The notes beneath the pieces are model-generated. The model was not told where the DNA came from. It saw only the letters and a program-made list of their open reading frames with translations, and did not search any database. Shown one piece after another: positions 8,809-14,913 of a stretch of DNA of 64,000 nucleotides. Every line of letters starts with the position of its first letter. The stretch's first letter is position 1. Made by a program: the position numbers and the translations under genes. Location of the stretch: the NCBI RefSeq assembly GCF_054482525.1, contig NZ_CM137006.1, one strand, 5' to 3'.

Positions 8809-10017
8809 ATGTTAAAAGTGGAAATGTTATCCACCGGGGATGAAGTGTTACACGGGCAAATCGTTGACACTAACGCTGCCTGGCTGGCCGATTTTTTCTT
8901 TCATCAGGGGTTGCCTTTAACTCGCCGCAATACGGTGGGGGATAACCTTGATGACTTAGTCACCATTCTTCGCGAACGTAGTCAGCACGCCGATGTGCTG
9001 ATCGTTAACGGCGGGCTGGGGCCGACCAGTGATGATTTAAGCGCACTCGCCGCTGCGACAGCAAAAGGTGAAGGCCTGGTGTTGCATGAAGCCTGGCTCA
9101 AAGAGATGGAACGCTATTTCCACGAACGTGGACGAGTAATGGCACCGAGCAACCGTAAACAAGCGGAGCTACCTGCCAGTGCTGAATTTATCAATAACCC
9201 GGTAGGCACCGCCTGTGGTTTTGCCGTGCAGCTTAATCGTTGCCTGATGTTCTTTACCCCCGGCGTACCGTCAGAATTTAAGGTGATGGTCGAGCACGAA
9301 ATCCTGCCGCGTCTGCGCGAGCGTTTTTCTTTACCACAGCCGCCGGTTTGTCTGCGTTTAACTACCTTTGGTCGTTCGGAAAGCGATCTGGCACAAAGCC
9401 TGGACACTCTACAACTGCCGCCGGGCGTAACAATGGGCTATCGCTCCTCAATGCCTATCATCGAACTGAAACTCACCGGACCGGCAAGCGAGCAACAGGC
9501 GATGGAAAAACTGTGGCTGGACGTTAAACGTGTTGCCGGACAGAGCGTGATTTTCGAAGGCACCGAAGGACTGCCCGCGCAGATCAGTCGCGAATTGCAA
9601 AACCGCCAGTTCAGCCTGACGTTGAGCGAGCAATTCACCAGCGGTTTATTGGCTTTGCAACTTTCTCGCGCAGGTGCTCCATTGCTGGCGTGTGAAGTGG
9701 TTCCTTCACAGGAAGAAACCCTGGCGCAAACTGCGCACTGGATTACAGAACGGCGGGCCAACCATTTTGCCGGGCTGGCACTGGCTGTTTCGGGTTTCGA
9801 GAACGAGCATCTCAACTTTGCGCTAGCCACGCCAGATGGCACTTTCGCTCTGCGTGTACGTTTCAGCACTACACGCTACAGCCTGGCTATCCGTCAGGAA
9901 GTGTGCGCAATGATGGCACTGAATATGCTGCGCCGTTGGTTAAACGGCCAGGACATTGCCAGTGAGCATGGCTGGATTGAGGTTGTTGAGTCCATGACCT
10001 TATCCAGTGCGCCGTAA
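8809..10017 (+). CDS. yfaY: CinA-like competence/damage-inducible protein YfaY
   Basis: 402-aa ORF beginning MLKVEMLSTGDEVLHGQIVDTNAAWLADFF...; stop is 3 nt before the IS left-end hairpin, so the last codons may be IS-derived. Confidence 0.85.
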   Translation: MLKVEMLSTGDEVLHGQIVDTNAAWLADFFFHQGLPLTRRNTVGDNLDDLVTILRERSQHADVLIVNGGLGPTSDDLSALAAATAKGEGLVLHEAWLKEMERYFHERGRVMAPSNRKQAELPASAEFINNPVGTACGFAVQLNRCLMFFTPGVPSEFKVMVEHEILPRLRERFSLPQPPVCLRLTTFGRSESDLAQSLDTLQLPPGVTMGYRSSMPIIELKLTGPASEQQAMEKLWLDVKRVAGQSVIFEGTEGLPAQISRELQNRQFSLTLSEQFTSGLLALQLSRAGAPLLACEVVPSQEETLAQTAHWITERRANHFAGLALAVSGFENEHLNFALATPDGTFALRVRFSTTRYSLAIRQEVCAMMALNMLRRWLNGQDIASEHGWIEVVESMTLSSAP

Positions 10018-10492
10018 AACCCCGTCCTTCAGGGCGGGGATATAAGGCGCGGTTTTCCACCTGACCAGGTGTTTGCTGTTGTTCAATGTATTGGCGGATG
10101 ACGGATATTGGCGCACCTCCGCAGCTACTGGCAAAATAGCCAGGACTCCACAAAACGCCTTTGTAGTAATACCTGACAGCAATATCTGGTCGATCTCGTC
10201 GCAGAAACCTATTCGATATGCCTTTGAGGCTGTTTACCAGACTGAATATCGCCAGTTTTGGAGGATAGTTAATTAACAAATGGACGTGATCTGGTTCGCC
10301 ATCCATTTCAATCAGTTCAGCTTCAAAATCAGCACATACATTTGAAAAGTAAGTGCGTAGTTTTTCTGTCGCGTCATGGTCAAAAATCTGGCGTCGGTAT
10401 TTGGTGACAAAGACCCGGTGAACATGCATCAGGAAAACACAATGCCTTCCACGCCGGATATCGGTTTCTTTTTTCACAGACCAAAGTATCAT
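9887..10492 (-). CDS. tnpA: IS200/IS605 Y1 (HUH) transposase TnpA, ORF extended past the element end
   Basis: Translation has the HUH motif (DHVHLLINYPPK) and catalytic-Tyr helix (VIRQYIEQQ); the ORF continues about 50 codons further, through the left-end hairpin and antisense to the yfaY 3' end. Confidence 0.75.
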   Translation of the reverse strand: MILWSVKKETDIRRGRHCVFLMHVHRVFVTKYRRQIFDHDATEKLRTYFSNVCADFEAELIEMDGEPDHVHLLINYPPKLAIFSLVNSLKGISNRFLRRDRPDIAVRYYYKGVLWSPGYFASSCGGAPISVIRQYIEQQQTPGQVENRALYPRPEGRGFTAHWIRSWTQQPQSSHAHWQCPGRLTNGAAYSVPSLRTLPDG

Positions 10493-11751
10493 TTGGCCTG
10501 TGAAACGACTACAGGCATTTAAATTCCAGTTAAGACCCGGTGGTCAACAGGAGCGTGAAATGAGGCGCTTCGCAGGCGCATGTCGTTTCGTTTTCAATCG
10601 TGCTCTGGCACGTCAGAATGAGAATCATGAGGCCGGTAATAAATACATCCCTTACGGGAAAATGGCTTCCTGGCTGGTTGAGTGGAAAAACGCCACTGAA
10701 ACGCAATGGCTTAAAGATGCCCCCTCACAGCCATTGCAACAGTCACTGAAAGACCTTGAGCGGGCTTACAAAAACTTCTTCCAGAATCGGGCTGCTTTTC
10801 CCCGATTCAAAAAGCGGGGACAGAATGATGCATTCCGCTACCCGCAGGGCGTTAAGCTCGATCAGGAAAACAGCCGTATTTTTCTGCCGAAACTTGGCTG
10901 GATGCGCTACCGGAACAGCCGTCAGGTCACGGGTGTTGTAAAAAATGTCACTGTCAGCCAGTCCTGCGGTAAGTGGTACATCAGTATTCAGACAGAAAGT
11001 GAAGTATCAACTCCGGATCACCCTTCAGCATCAATGGTCGGGCTGGATGCTGGCGTGGCTAAACTCGCCACGCTGTCAGATGGCACAGTCTTTGAGCCTG
11101 TAAACAGTTTTCAGAAAAACCAGAAGACGCTGGCGAGACTTCAGCGACAGTTAAGCCGCAAGGTCAAATTCAGCAACAACTGGCAGAAGCAGAAACGCAA
11201 AATACAGCGACTGCATTCCTGTATCGCAAATATCCGCAGGGACTACCTTCACAAAGTCACAACGACCGTCAGCAAAAACCACGCAATGATAGTCATTGAG
11301 GATTTGAAGGTCAGCAACATGTCAAAGTCAGCAGCGGGTACGGTCAGCCAGCCGGGGCGCAATGTCCGGGCAAAATCAGGTTTAAACCGTTCGATACTGG
11401 ATCAGGGCTGGTATGAAATGCGCCGCCAGCTTGAGTACAAGCAGCTCTGGCGTGGCGGTCAGGTGCTTGCTGTTCCGCCAGCGTACACAAGCCAGCGTTG
11501 CACGTGCTGTGGTCATACAGCGAAAGAAAATCGCCTGTCACAAAGTCAATTCAGATGCCAGGTATGTGGATATACAGCGAACGCCGATGTAAATGGCGCT
11601 CGTAACATTTTAGCGGCGGGGCACGCCGTTCTTGCCTGTGGAGGGATGGTGCAGTCAGGCCGCTCGTTGAAGCAGGAACCCACCGAAATGATTCAGGCGA
11701 CAGCCTGAACGTAGCAGGGATCCACGTTCTTCAGGGCGTGGAGGATGTCAA
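10001..11751 (+). mobile_element. IS200/IS605-family insertion sequence (divergent tnpA + tnpB); boundaries approximate (about +/-20 bp)
   Basis: Y1 transposase and TnpB ORFs bracketed by two similar subterminal hairpins on the same strand: ccccgtccttcagggcgggg (10020..10039) and ccacgttcttcagggcgtgg (11722..11741); rhmT homology resumes about 10 nt after the second hairpin. Confidence 0.8.
10500..11708 (+). CDS. tnpB: TnpB (IS605 OrfB family; RNA-guided RuvC-like endonuclease)
   Basis: 402-aa ORF with GTG start; RuvC-I (VGLDAGV), RuvC-II (IVIEDLKV), zinc finger CTCCGH...CQVCGY and RuvC-III (DVNGARNI) motifs all present. Confidence 0.85.
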
Positions 11752-11767
11752 GTTGGCGCTGTATGTG
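11560..11767 (+). ncRNA. Predicted TnpB-associated omega/reRNA (tnpB 3' end + right-end hairpin + about 16-nt flank-derived guide)
   Basis: Placed by analogy with characterised IS200/IS605 TnpB systems; the right-end hairpin is seen in sequence, the RNA extent is inferred. Confidence 0.3.
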
Positions 11768-12907
11768 CTGGCGTTTCTCGACCGTTCGAATATCGGTTTT
11801 GCCAAACAGACCTACCAGATTGATACCGGGCTGAGTAATGAAGCTTATGCGCTGGGAGCAGGCATTTTCTTTGTGGTATATGCGTTTCTGGGTGTTCCGG
11901 CGAATCTTTTGATGCGCAAACTGGGGGCAAGAACCTGGATTGGTACGACAACACTGCTGTGGGGATTTCTTTCGGCAGCCATGGCATGGGCCGATACTGA
12001 AGCGAAATTTCTGATCGTTCGCACTCTGCTTGGTGCTGCGGAGGCCGGGTTCTTCCCTGGTATGATTTATCTCACCTCGCAATGGTTTCCGCAGCGTAAT
12101 CGCGCCAGCATTATGGGGCTGTTCTATATGGGTGCACCGCTGGCGTTAACACTGGGATCACCGCTTTCCGGCGCGCTGCTGGAGATGCATGGATTTATGG
12201 GGCATCCCGGCTGGTTCTGGATGTTTGTGATTGAAGGATTGCTGGCAGTCGGCGCTGGGGTATTCACATTCTTTTGGCTTGATGACACACCGGAGCAGGC
12301 ACGTTTTCTGAGTAAACAAGAAAAAACGTTGCTTATCAATCAACTGGCAAGTGAAGAACAACAGAAAGTGACTTCTCGATTGAGCGATGCGCTGCGTAAT
12401 GGCCGAGTCTGGCAACTGGCGATTATCTACCTGACCATTCAGGTGGCGGTTTACGGATTAATTTTCTTCCTGCCGACCCAGGTTGCTGCATTGCTGGGGA
12501 CAAAAGTGGGCTTTACGGCGTCGGTGGTCACCGCCATTCCGTGGGTTGCGGTCTTGTTTGGGACCTGGCTTATTCCGCGCTATTCCGATAAAACCGGCGA
12601 ACGGCGTAATGTCGCAGCGCTGTGTGTTGCAGCCATCGGGTTTATTGCCGTGCAGCCGGTGTTCTGGACGATGCCGACACAACTTCTTTCCGGTACGGCG
12701 CTGGCTGCGGGGATTGGTTTTATAAACCTGTTTGGTGCAGTGGGCGGGTTTATTGCCCCGATCCTGCGCGTGAAAGCAGAAACGTTATTTTCCAGCGATG
12801 CGGCGGGATTACTGACGCTGGCAGCGGTGGCGGTCATCGGTTCACTGATTATTTTCACTCTGCGTGTAAATCACACTGTTGCGCAGACCGACGTGGCACA
12901 TCATTAA
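11752..12907 (+). pseudogene. rhmT: 5'-truncated L-rhamnonate MFS transporter rhmT (yfaV), missing about 40 N-terminal codons
   Basis: Translation from ...LALYVLAFLDRSNIGFAKQTYQIDTGL... matches RhmT from about residue 45 onward; sequence upstream is IS. An in-frame GTG inside the IS end (11738) could drive a fusion product. Confidence 0.75.
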
Positions 12908-13767: not shown

Positions 13768-13941
13768 TTAGTGGTTATTCGCTGCCAGATCGGCTTCGCT
13801 TAGCTGGGTGGCCGCGAGCACCAGGTCACGATCAATGCCCTGTTCCAGCATGCGCAAAGCAATTTTAATGGCTTGTTCATGCATGCCTTCCTGCCAGCCA
13901 ATTTGGTGTCCTTCCTGCCGTAGCCGTTCAGCAATAGTCAT
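13768..13941 (-). CDS. ypaA: YpaA: free-standing copy of the Rpn C-terminal small domain (57 aa)
   Basis: Hand-translated [57 protein letters not shown]; its 5' region, including the SD, is a near-identical duplicate of the rpnB 3' region. Below the 60-aa track cutoff. Confidence 0.7.
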   Translation of the reverse strand: MTIAERLRQEGHQIGWQEGMHEQAIKIALRMLEQGIDRDLVLAATQLSEADLAANNH

Positions 13942-13953
13942 TAATCTCTCCTT

Positions 13954-14913
13954 TTAATAACAGTTCGGAATATCAGCATCAGTGAGTTGGGTTGTCGCCA
14001 GCACAATCTCACGTTCAAAGCCCTGTTCCAGCATGCGCAAGGCAATTTTAATGGCTTGTTCATGCATACCTTCTACTTTGCCTTTCTGCAAACCCTCCAA
14101 CTTCCCCTCCTGCCAACCTTCAATCTTACCCTCCTGCCAGCCAATTTGATGTCCTTCCTGCCGCAGCCGTTCAGCAATAGTCATTAATCTCTCCTTTTGT
14201 AGTGGTGAACGTTCGGCAATCTCCTCAATAAAACGGGTGAAACGGGAGGTATCGCCGCATTGCAGCAGATAATTAAACAGCGTTTGTAGCTGGCTGTCAT
14301 TAGTGAAGCCTCTAACCAAAAGCGTGGTGATCCTGTCGACCATACCGATTAAATCGCGGTCGCGAATATGCTTTTGAATCAGTTCCAGCAGAGCTATACG
14401 CCGATGTTGCATGATCTCATCGTCAGGTACGATGGTGATATCCACCAACGGAAAAGCTTCGGTGTACAACTGCCGGGCAAGTTGCGGATCGTCAAACTCA
14501 TCCAGCCAGTTGAGTGAGTACGGGTAAGGCGAGGTTTCGCCATGATAAAACAGCAACGGCACCACCAGCGGGACTCTGTCATAGCCTTTGTCCAGGTGAC
14601 GCTGCATGGCGGCAGTGGCATAGCGCATTAGCCGAAAAGCCATATTCTTTTCTGCAGAGCTTTGATGTTCAATCACGCAGTAGATATAACCGTCACCGTC
14701 GCTGGTTTCCACGGACCACAAAACATCCGAGTAGTAAGCGCGTAAACTTTTTTCAATAAAACTGGTGGGTTCCAGGCGTAAGGTTTGCAGGTTGCAAAGC
14801 TTGCGCAGCGGCTCTGGTAGATGTATTTCCAGAAAATCCCGTGCGGTTTCGGGTGTGAACATAAAGGTTTTAAACACCGCATCATGCGGGGAGGAGGTTG
14901 TTGATTCGGTCAT
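13954..14913 (-). CDS. rpnB: Recombination-promoting nuclease RpnB (YfaD; PD-(D/E)XK / YhgA-like)
   Basis: 319-aa ORF beginning [36 protein letters not shown]... with C-terminal [17 protein letters not shown] repeats. Confidence 0.85.

Follow-up and report, generated by a model that had tools for sequence, protein, structure and literature searches.

Does an insertion sequence that borders a chromosomal deletion carry the parts of a working RNA-guided nuclease, and against which DNA would such a nuclease be directed? The question is raised by a copy of IS609, a member of the IS200/IS605 family, which lies between yfaY and a 5'-truncated rhmT (yfaV) gene in a stretch of 64,000 nucleotides (nt) from contig NZ_CM137006.1 (RefSeq assembly GCF_054482525.1); we refer to this whole stretch as the window. 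The stretch comes from an E. coli chromosome and, at the IS609 locus, matches strain PCN033 with 100% identity. The element carries two divergent genes, tnpA (minus strand) for the transposase and tnpB, also called insQ (plus strand), for the candidate nuclease, with 7 nt between their start codons. In the OMEGA (obligate mobile element-guided activity) systems of ISDra2 and of IS605-type elements from Geobacillus, TnpB obtains its guide from the flank of the element, and its transposon-associated motif (TAM) is the target site of the transposon. From the sequence, we consider it likely that the window holds an intact IS609 module of TnpB and omega-RNA, with a guide from rhmT and a TTAT-flanked target in rhmT. 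IS609 and InsQ are catalogued, the RefSeq label is in place and the guide-from-flank logic is textbook, so that the finding as such is already known. The locus provides a clean natural case, in which tnpB and its RNA are conserved, tnpA appears to be decaying and the arrangement is common to 187-189 genomes. Moreover, the predicted target is an allele that is widespread on chromosomes of E. coli itself.

TnpB and the predicted omega-RNA

The initial annotation described intact RuvC-I, RuvC-II and RuvC-III motifs and a zinc finger in TnpB. All of them are present (Table 1), and the catalytic residues are not substituted with respect to ISDra2. When ISDra2 TnpB (PDB 8bf8/8exa) was aligned with the window protein by phmmer (residues 3-377, E 4e-55), D183, E267 and D363 fell on the catalytic D191, E278 and D361 of ISDra2, and the zinc-finger cysteines C334, C337, C353 and C356 on C331, C334, C351 and C354. 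The NCBIfam profile NF040570 (guided_TnpB) was matched with 387.2 bits (cut-off 100) over positions 1-388 of 389, and the IS607_TnpB profile gave a match of 194 bits, below its cut-off. By these alignments, the motif matches are due to homology and not to chance. The window protein thus shows every sequence-testable family feature of a TnpB (OMEGA) nuclease, and the RefSeq annotation of the gene is 'RNA-guided endonuclease InsQ/TnpB family protein'.

The tnpB reading frame is maintained across copies. We compared six copies, namely those of the window, of K-12, of strain 042 at the same locus, the second copy of PCN033, and those of an Escherichia sp. and of Citrobacter. The 402-amino-acid frame is open in all six, and the ratio of non-synonymous to synonymous substitution rates (dN/dS) is 0.11-0.42; by this measure tnpB is under purifying selection. 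Only two substitutions, V173D and A335T, are private to the window protein when it is compared with 21 homologues. The first falls in a variable column, and the second occupies one of the x positions in the first CxxC.

A guide RNA that spans the 3' end of tnpB and the right end of the element had been proposed, along with a covariance-model search for its scaffold. That search gave a positive result. Using a model trained on 19 loci from other genera, from which Escherichia and Citrobacter sequences were excluded, we obtained a single significant match in the window, at 11605..11751 on the plus strand (165.6 bits, E ~8e-41). The match spans model positions 1-147, with no non-canonical pair flagged, and this end-to-end agreement indicates that the predicted omega-RNA scaffold (right-end element RNA, reRNA) is intact. 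The scaffold consists of the final ~100 nt of tnpB and the 43 nt that follow to the end of the element. The model also matched the left-end hairpin weakly (10019..10038), because the two hairpins are alike.

The structure itself is supported by covariation. The consensus from 27 aligned right ends contains 43 base pairs; compensatory double changes occur at 15 of these, and 96.4% of the alignment cells pair on the consensus structure. By comparison, column shuffles gave 4.7 ± 1.5 covarying pairs, and sliding the partners by 1-3 columns gave 3-10. In 16 tnpB genes, identity at third codon positions reaches 0.85-0.91 in the last 30 codons but is ~0.6-0.8 for the greater part of the gene; amino-acid identity in those last 30 codons is lower, at 0.82-0.88. 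Third positions that are frozen to this degree, with lower amino-acid identity, argue for a constraint at the level of RNA or DNA over the coding sequence. For E. coli K-12, in which tnpB is the IS609 copy, RNA sequencing is reported to show a transcript in sense orientation at the 3' end of tnpB (PMC4615843).

Table 1. Features of the IS609 locus, in coordinates of the window
Feature	Position (nt)	Strand	Residues	Basis or remark
IS609, IS200/IS605 family, 1,748 bp, complete from end to end	10004..11751	+		Comparison with K-12 IS609
TTAT target site and predicted TAM	10000..10003	+		5' of left end, in last codons of yfaY
Left-end subterminal hairpin, CCCCGTCC-TTCA-GGGCGGGG	10019..10038	+		Sequence inspection; kept in relatives
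tnpA, Y1 HUH transposase, probably defective	~10078..10492	-		NCBIfam transpos_IS200, 138.5 bits, full profile
tnpB/insQ, GTG start, intact reading frame	10500..11708	+	402 amino acids	Open reading frame, profile and alignment
RuvC-I motif GLDAGV	11040-11057		181-186
RuvC-II motif IEDLKV	11295-11312		266-271
Zinc-finger motif CTCC	11499-11510		334-337
Zinc-finger motif CQVC	11556-11567		353-356
RuvC-III motif DVNGARNI	11586-11609		363-370
Omega-RNA (reRNA) scaffold, 147 nt, predicted	11605..11751	+		Covariance model
Closing helix	11605-11610 with 11743-11748	+
Scaffold hairpin	11613-11629	+
RAGATH-18-like junction	11635-11676	+		Within scaffold
Hairpin across tnpB stop codon	11693-11708	+
Right-end UUCA hairpin	11721-11742	+
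Predicted guide, GTTGGCGCTGTATGTG	11752..11767, perhaps to ~20 nt (11771)	+		rhmT codons 21-26
rhmT (yfaV) without its first 62 nt	11752..12907	+		Open reading frame, comparison with K-12

Guide, target site and the neighbouring deletion

The position of the guide depends on where the element ends. We examined 51 related loci, obtained from one scan of species-representative genomes, with protein identities of 28-94%. In 33 of them the right end is ...GGAGGATGTCAA, and similarity ends right there, after TGTCAA (...GGATGTCAA), with unrelated flanks; two whole contigs of 1,752-1,753 bp consist of just an IS609-like element. The window copy is 97.65% identical to the annotated IS609 of K-12 (NC_000913 1503161..1504908), with which it agrees in length and in its terminal bases (CCAGTGCGCC...GGAGGATGTCAA; the left end is CC[A/G]GTGCGCC across the window and K-12 copies). 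By this comparison the element is the known, catalogued E. coli IS609, and subterminal hairpins at both ends, together with a match to the Y1 HUH profile in tnpA, accompany tnpB within it. The stop in similarity at the 33 loci and the K-12 annotation place the end of the element at 11751 and the start of the guide at 11752. The guide is thus predicted to be the 16 nt of rhmT at 11752..11767, just as had been suggested from the sequence of this locus.

It was likewise correct to advise that the TAM be read from the sequence 5' of the left end. TTAT or TTAC precedes the element in 14 independent copies and stands at the two uninterrupted sites of K-12, often with a further T before it. The left flank is CCTTAT for the window copy, TTTTAT for the K-12 copy, GTTTAT for the second PCN033 copy and CTTTAT for the 042 copy, and the 10 loci from other genera have TTAT (7) or TTAC (3). 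The uninterrupted yfaY site of K-12 reads ACCTTAT/CTGTCTGA (the slash marks the point of insertion), and TTAT was also the motif with which the target of an IS609-type TnpB was designed (PMC12781874, Table S2). These comparisons identify TTAT as the insertion site of IS609, and we predict that it serves as the TAM. At the locus studied here, strain 042 has ACTTTAT and the window ACCTTAT (9998..10003), a polymorphism at TAM position -5 that gives the 042 flank the more typical TTTAT.

Wild-type rhmT of K-12 reads CCGTTTAT/GTTGGCGCTGTATGTG, so that the guide match directly follows TTTAT. Since this match already follows TTAT in the wild type, the right junction is of the canonical kind that insertion produces, and the guide reads as the record of an ordinary IS609 insertion at TTAT in rhmT codon 21. 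Likewise, because guide and TTAT are adjacent in wild-type rhmT, the predicted programming is against intact rhmT and not against a deletion junction. In its own genome, the guide-matching DNA is preceded by GTCAA, the right end of the element, which is not a TAM; the combination of TAM and target is therefore absent there, and no other guide match with three or fewer mismatches was found within the window. In natural DNA, TAM plus target was found only in the intact rhmT of other strains (TTTAT+GTTGGCGCTGTATGTGCTGG).

To describe how common these alleles are, we counted junctions in 5,426 complete E. coli genomes. The junction of the right end with rhmT is present in 189 genomes and that of yfaY with the left end in 187, while the uninterrupted rhmT site (TTTAT plus target) is present in 3,830. 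The IS609 that strain 042 has at this locus and the window copy differ at 32 of 1,748 positions (1.8%), with tnpB still intact in 042, and this divergence indicates that the insertion is not recent.

Relative to K-12, the locus lacks 2,348 bp, comprising the stop region of yfaY, rhmR (yfaX), rhmD and the first 62 nt of rhmT. With rhmR and rhmD deleted, the pathway is broken. The deletion altered only the left flank, where it supplies another TTAT at the end of yfaY. Both of its end points lie directly 3' of TTAT, a position that we estimate an arbitrary end point would have with a chance of ~1 in 256 each, and this coincidence links IS609 activity to the loss of rhmR and rhmD, two L-rhamnonate genes. 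Either of two routes could account for the deletion: recombination between two IS609 copies in direct orientation, of which each TTAT held one, or a reaction in which TnpA may have joined the right end of a copy in yfaY to the downstream TTAT/G of rhmT, with release of the intervening segment.

The insertion also alters the neighbouring genes. YfaY ends in ...MTLSV in K-12 and in ...MTLSSAP here, its last codons and stop codon being provided by the left end of IS609 (10004..10017). The truncated rhmT has an in-frame GTG at 11738 in the right end (MEDVK followed by LALYVLAFL...), and RefSeq starts the rhmT coding sequence at 11705, where it overlaps the tnpB stop. The truncated gene may still be translated; its expression would need read-through from tnpB.

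Transposase decay and competing explanations

The state of tnpA bears directly on what the nuclease could do. The gene keeps its HUH motif and catalytic Tyr, and it has no internal stop, unlike the copy of K-12 and the second copy of PCN033. However, its natural stop codon is lost (TAG to CAG), as in all E. coli-type copies, whereas relatives end in ...QQQTP[G/S]. As a result, the open reading frame runs through the left-end hairpin to 9887 inside yfaY and encodes 201 amino acids versus ~146 (9887..10492, minus strand). Six replacements in 138 codons, L26R in the first beta-strand motif (HVHRVFV versus HVHLVFV) among them, are private to the window copy, and pairwise dN/dS is ~0.5-1.3. RefSeq lists the gene as a pseudogene. 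We also considered that the deletion had truncated tnpA, and rejected this possibility: the left end is complete and the loss of the stop is common to K-12-type copies. In sequence, then, tnpA looks decayed. Consequently the element is probably immobile, excision is unlikely, and the nuclease would probably be idle.

If the module works as do other TnpB systems, the tnpB transcript would be processed to an omega-RNA of ~160 nt that ends in the rhmT guide, and the complex of TnpB and omega-RNA would cut double-stranded DNA bearing 5'-TTAT followed by GTTGGCGCTGTATGTG, at ~15-21 bp from the TAM. In its classical role, the nuclease would cut the empty donor site after excision, and the element would then be copied back from the sister chromosome; precise excision of the window copy would create just such a TAM and target. 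On this reading, the 2.3-kb loss of rhmR and rhmD is an event separate from the insertion and specific to the sites of the transposase. Whether TnpB is active in vivo is a narrower matter, on which we lean only slightly towards predicting activity.

The deletion had been taken to create a new junction, a rearranged site against which the nuclease would be specifically re-programmed. The left flank is new DNA relative to wild-type rhmT, and after precise excision the joint yfaY-TTAT/GTTGGCG would hold TAM and target. The claim did not survive comparison with the wild type, in which rhmT already reads TTTAT/GTTGGCGCTGTATGTG: the guide is older than the deletion, which neither altered it nor created a target. 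In addition, the joint occurs in 0 of the 5,426 genomes, and excision would require a working TnpA, which is doubtful here, so that programming against the junction is improbable. A more serious concern is that the module might be an inert relic, whose intact look means only that decay has not yet arrived and whose TnpB, unexpressed or inactive (for example through A335T), cuts nothing. Several observations weigh against a functional module and mostly fit such a relic. The substitution A335T lies inside the zinc finger and is found only in the window copy among 22 sequences. A simple promoter and terminator scan, itself uninformative, detected no convincing sigma-70-like promoter for tnpB or the omega-RNA. 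A literature search brought up no paper that reports whether the TnpB of E. coli IS609 cleaves DNA; the SfaTnpB study purified and assayed an orthologue of the IS609 type, but its text does not state the outcome (PMC12781874). The selection estimate among E. coli tnpB copies (dN/dS 0.17-0.42) comes from just 17-27 substitutions per pair. Every E. coli tnpA copy examined is decayed, IS609 was immobile in K-12 mutation-accumulation lines, with no new insertions (PMC5009759), and the present genome contains no target. Finally, neither deletion intermediate, the right end joined to yfaY-downstream DNA or rhmT-TTTAT joined to the left end, was present in the 5,426 genomes (0 for each), so that the two deletion routes are not distinguished. 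Against a relic, the 402-amino-acid frame and the low dN/dS persist in all six copies while the adjacent tnpA gathers stops and replacements, the scaffold matches the family model without broken pairs, and transcripts of the K-12 tnpB 3' end are reported (PMC4615843). Furthermore, ISDra2 carries His at the position equivalent to 335, and this position therefore tolerates change. On balance we regard an inert relic as unlikely, although less so than programming against the junction.

A further possibility is that the host has domesticated TnpB and keeps it for another cellular role, be it regulation or protection from incoming DNA with intact rhmT. The conservation of tnpB beside a decaying tnpA, the fixation of the locus in 187-189 genomes, with copies that have diverged by 1.8%, and the frequency of the target allele in the species would all fit this idea. 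However, tnpB without tnpA is common in the family and needs no special role, and there is no phenotype evidence. In the known exapted TnpBs (TldR), the RuvC site is inactivated and the transposon ends are gone, whereas both are intact here; we hold domestication to be very unlikely. A nuclease-dead regulator of the TldR type was rejected, given the intact D-E-D triad and the presence of both element ends. One specific form of a retained function would be an allele-specific nuclease against incoming wild-type rhm DNA, in which nuclease and guide were selected after the death of the transposase, a scenario to which we give little credence. If it were true, allele-specific cutting would block repair of the rhmR-rhmD deletion, or convert an incoming allele to the allele with the IS and the deletion; the outcome would be a within-species drive or incompatibility, with the target allele present in ~70% of E. 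coli. The reading that we prefer is thus an intact IS609 module of TnpB and omega-RNA whose predicted target is intact rhmT.

Comparison with known systems and relatives

The K-12 copy of IS609 (insQ/b1432, with the yncK pseudogene) resembles the window copy in its divergent tnpA and tnpB, its 402-amino-acid InsQ, the TTAT in its left flank and its decayed tnpA. The two differ in site, ydcL/ydcO in K-12 versus yfaY/rhmT in the window, and thus in guide (TATCGGT... versus GTTGGCG...). The window copy is further set apart by a tnpA without an internal stop, two private TnpB substitutions and the adjacent 2.3-kb deletion. The TnpB and omega-RNA complex of ISDra2 from Deinococcus radiodurans (PDB 8bf8/8exa/8h1j) shares the D-E-D triad, the zinc finger, a guide RNA that overlaps the tnpB 3' end and the right end, and, as predicted for the window, a TAM that is the transposon target site. 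However, the ISDra2 TAM is TTGAT, whereas TTAT is predicted here, and tnpA is co-directional in ISDra2 and divergent in the window. In addition, the C-terminal tail of the window TnpB, of ~25 amino acids, is encoded by the RNA scaffold, unlike that of ISDra2.

Comparison of the scaffold with RNA families, at a permissive Rfam threshold, found no family at its gathering score in the scaffold region; the sub-threshold matches, which served as leads, were RAGATH-18 at 11635-11678, and HgcC and sot0042 at 11581-11764. Membership in RAGATH-18 (RF03064) was rejected, since the match scored 26.5 bits versus a gathering score of 44.9. Nevertheless, the junction CCUGUGGAG...GUUGAAGCAGGAA (11635..11678) fits the RAGATH-18 consensus at its two ends. 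The guide RNAs of IS607 TnpBs have RAGATH-18 as their core, and RAGATH-18 is said to co-occur only with these TnpBs (PMC11061315). The resemblance to this reRNA lies in the junction ends; the inner stem is 44 nt in RAGATH-18 versus 17 nt in the window, and IS607 has a serine transposase, whereas the window element has a Y1 transposase of the IS200/IS605 type and a scaffold that overlaps coding sequence. A RAGATH-18-like junction in the predicted guide RNA of an IS200/IS605-type element suggests an RNA core common to both transposon families. The sotRNA and HgcC families (RF02656, RF00062) carry the right-end UUCA hairpin of tnpB 3' transcripts (PMC4615843). They share with the window a sense transcript of the tnpB 3' end, predicted in the window, and a right-end hairpin with a UUCA tetraloop, but they are archaeal families, and the window matches score 14-19 bits versus gathering scores of 50-88.

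Among the related loci, some are truncated and retain only the last 30-180 tnpB codons and the right end, with the full 147-nt scaffold conserved. These loci (L044 1501-1850, L046 1501-1738, L050 1501-1677, L053 1474-1648, L054 1574-1748, L033 and L045) come from Citrobacter, Escherichia whittamii, Photorhabdus, a gammaproteobacterial metagenome-assembled genome and Arsenophonus. They may be guide-RNA remnants that stand alone, or no more than truncated copies. A Photorhabdus/Klebsiella subgroup (L021, L022, L024-L027 and L035), with ~62% protein identity and a TnpB of 408 amino acids, has a right-end hairpin that is ~14 nt larger (..CCCCCTCTTGAGTCACGAAGTGCGAAAGTGGGGG..), with a terminus that is still GGAGGATGTCAA.

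The second IS609 of PCN033 (L056 2216..4362) disrupts a TetR/AcrR regulator gene between yjfZ and ytfB. Its flanks are GGTTTAT and CATATCAGTATGG, it differs from the window copy at 38 positions, and it has an intact tnpB and a tnpA with an internal stop. Elsewhere in the window, on the minus strand, an rpnE-like gene is followed by a short open reading frame that repeats its C-terminal sequence (13768..14913; the ypaA pseudogene in K-12). This arrangement is a local partial duplication that has no bearing on IS609.

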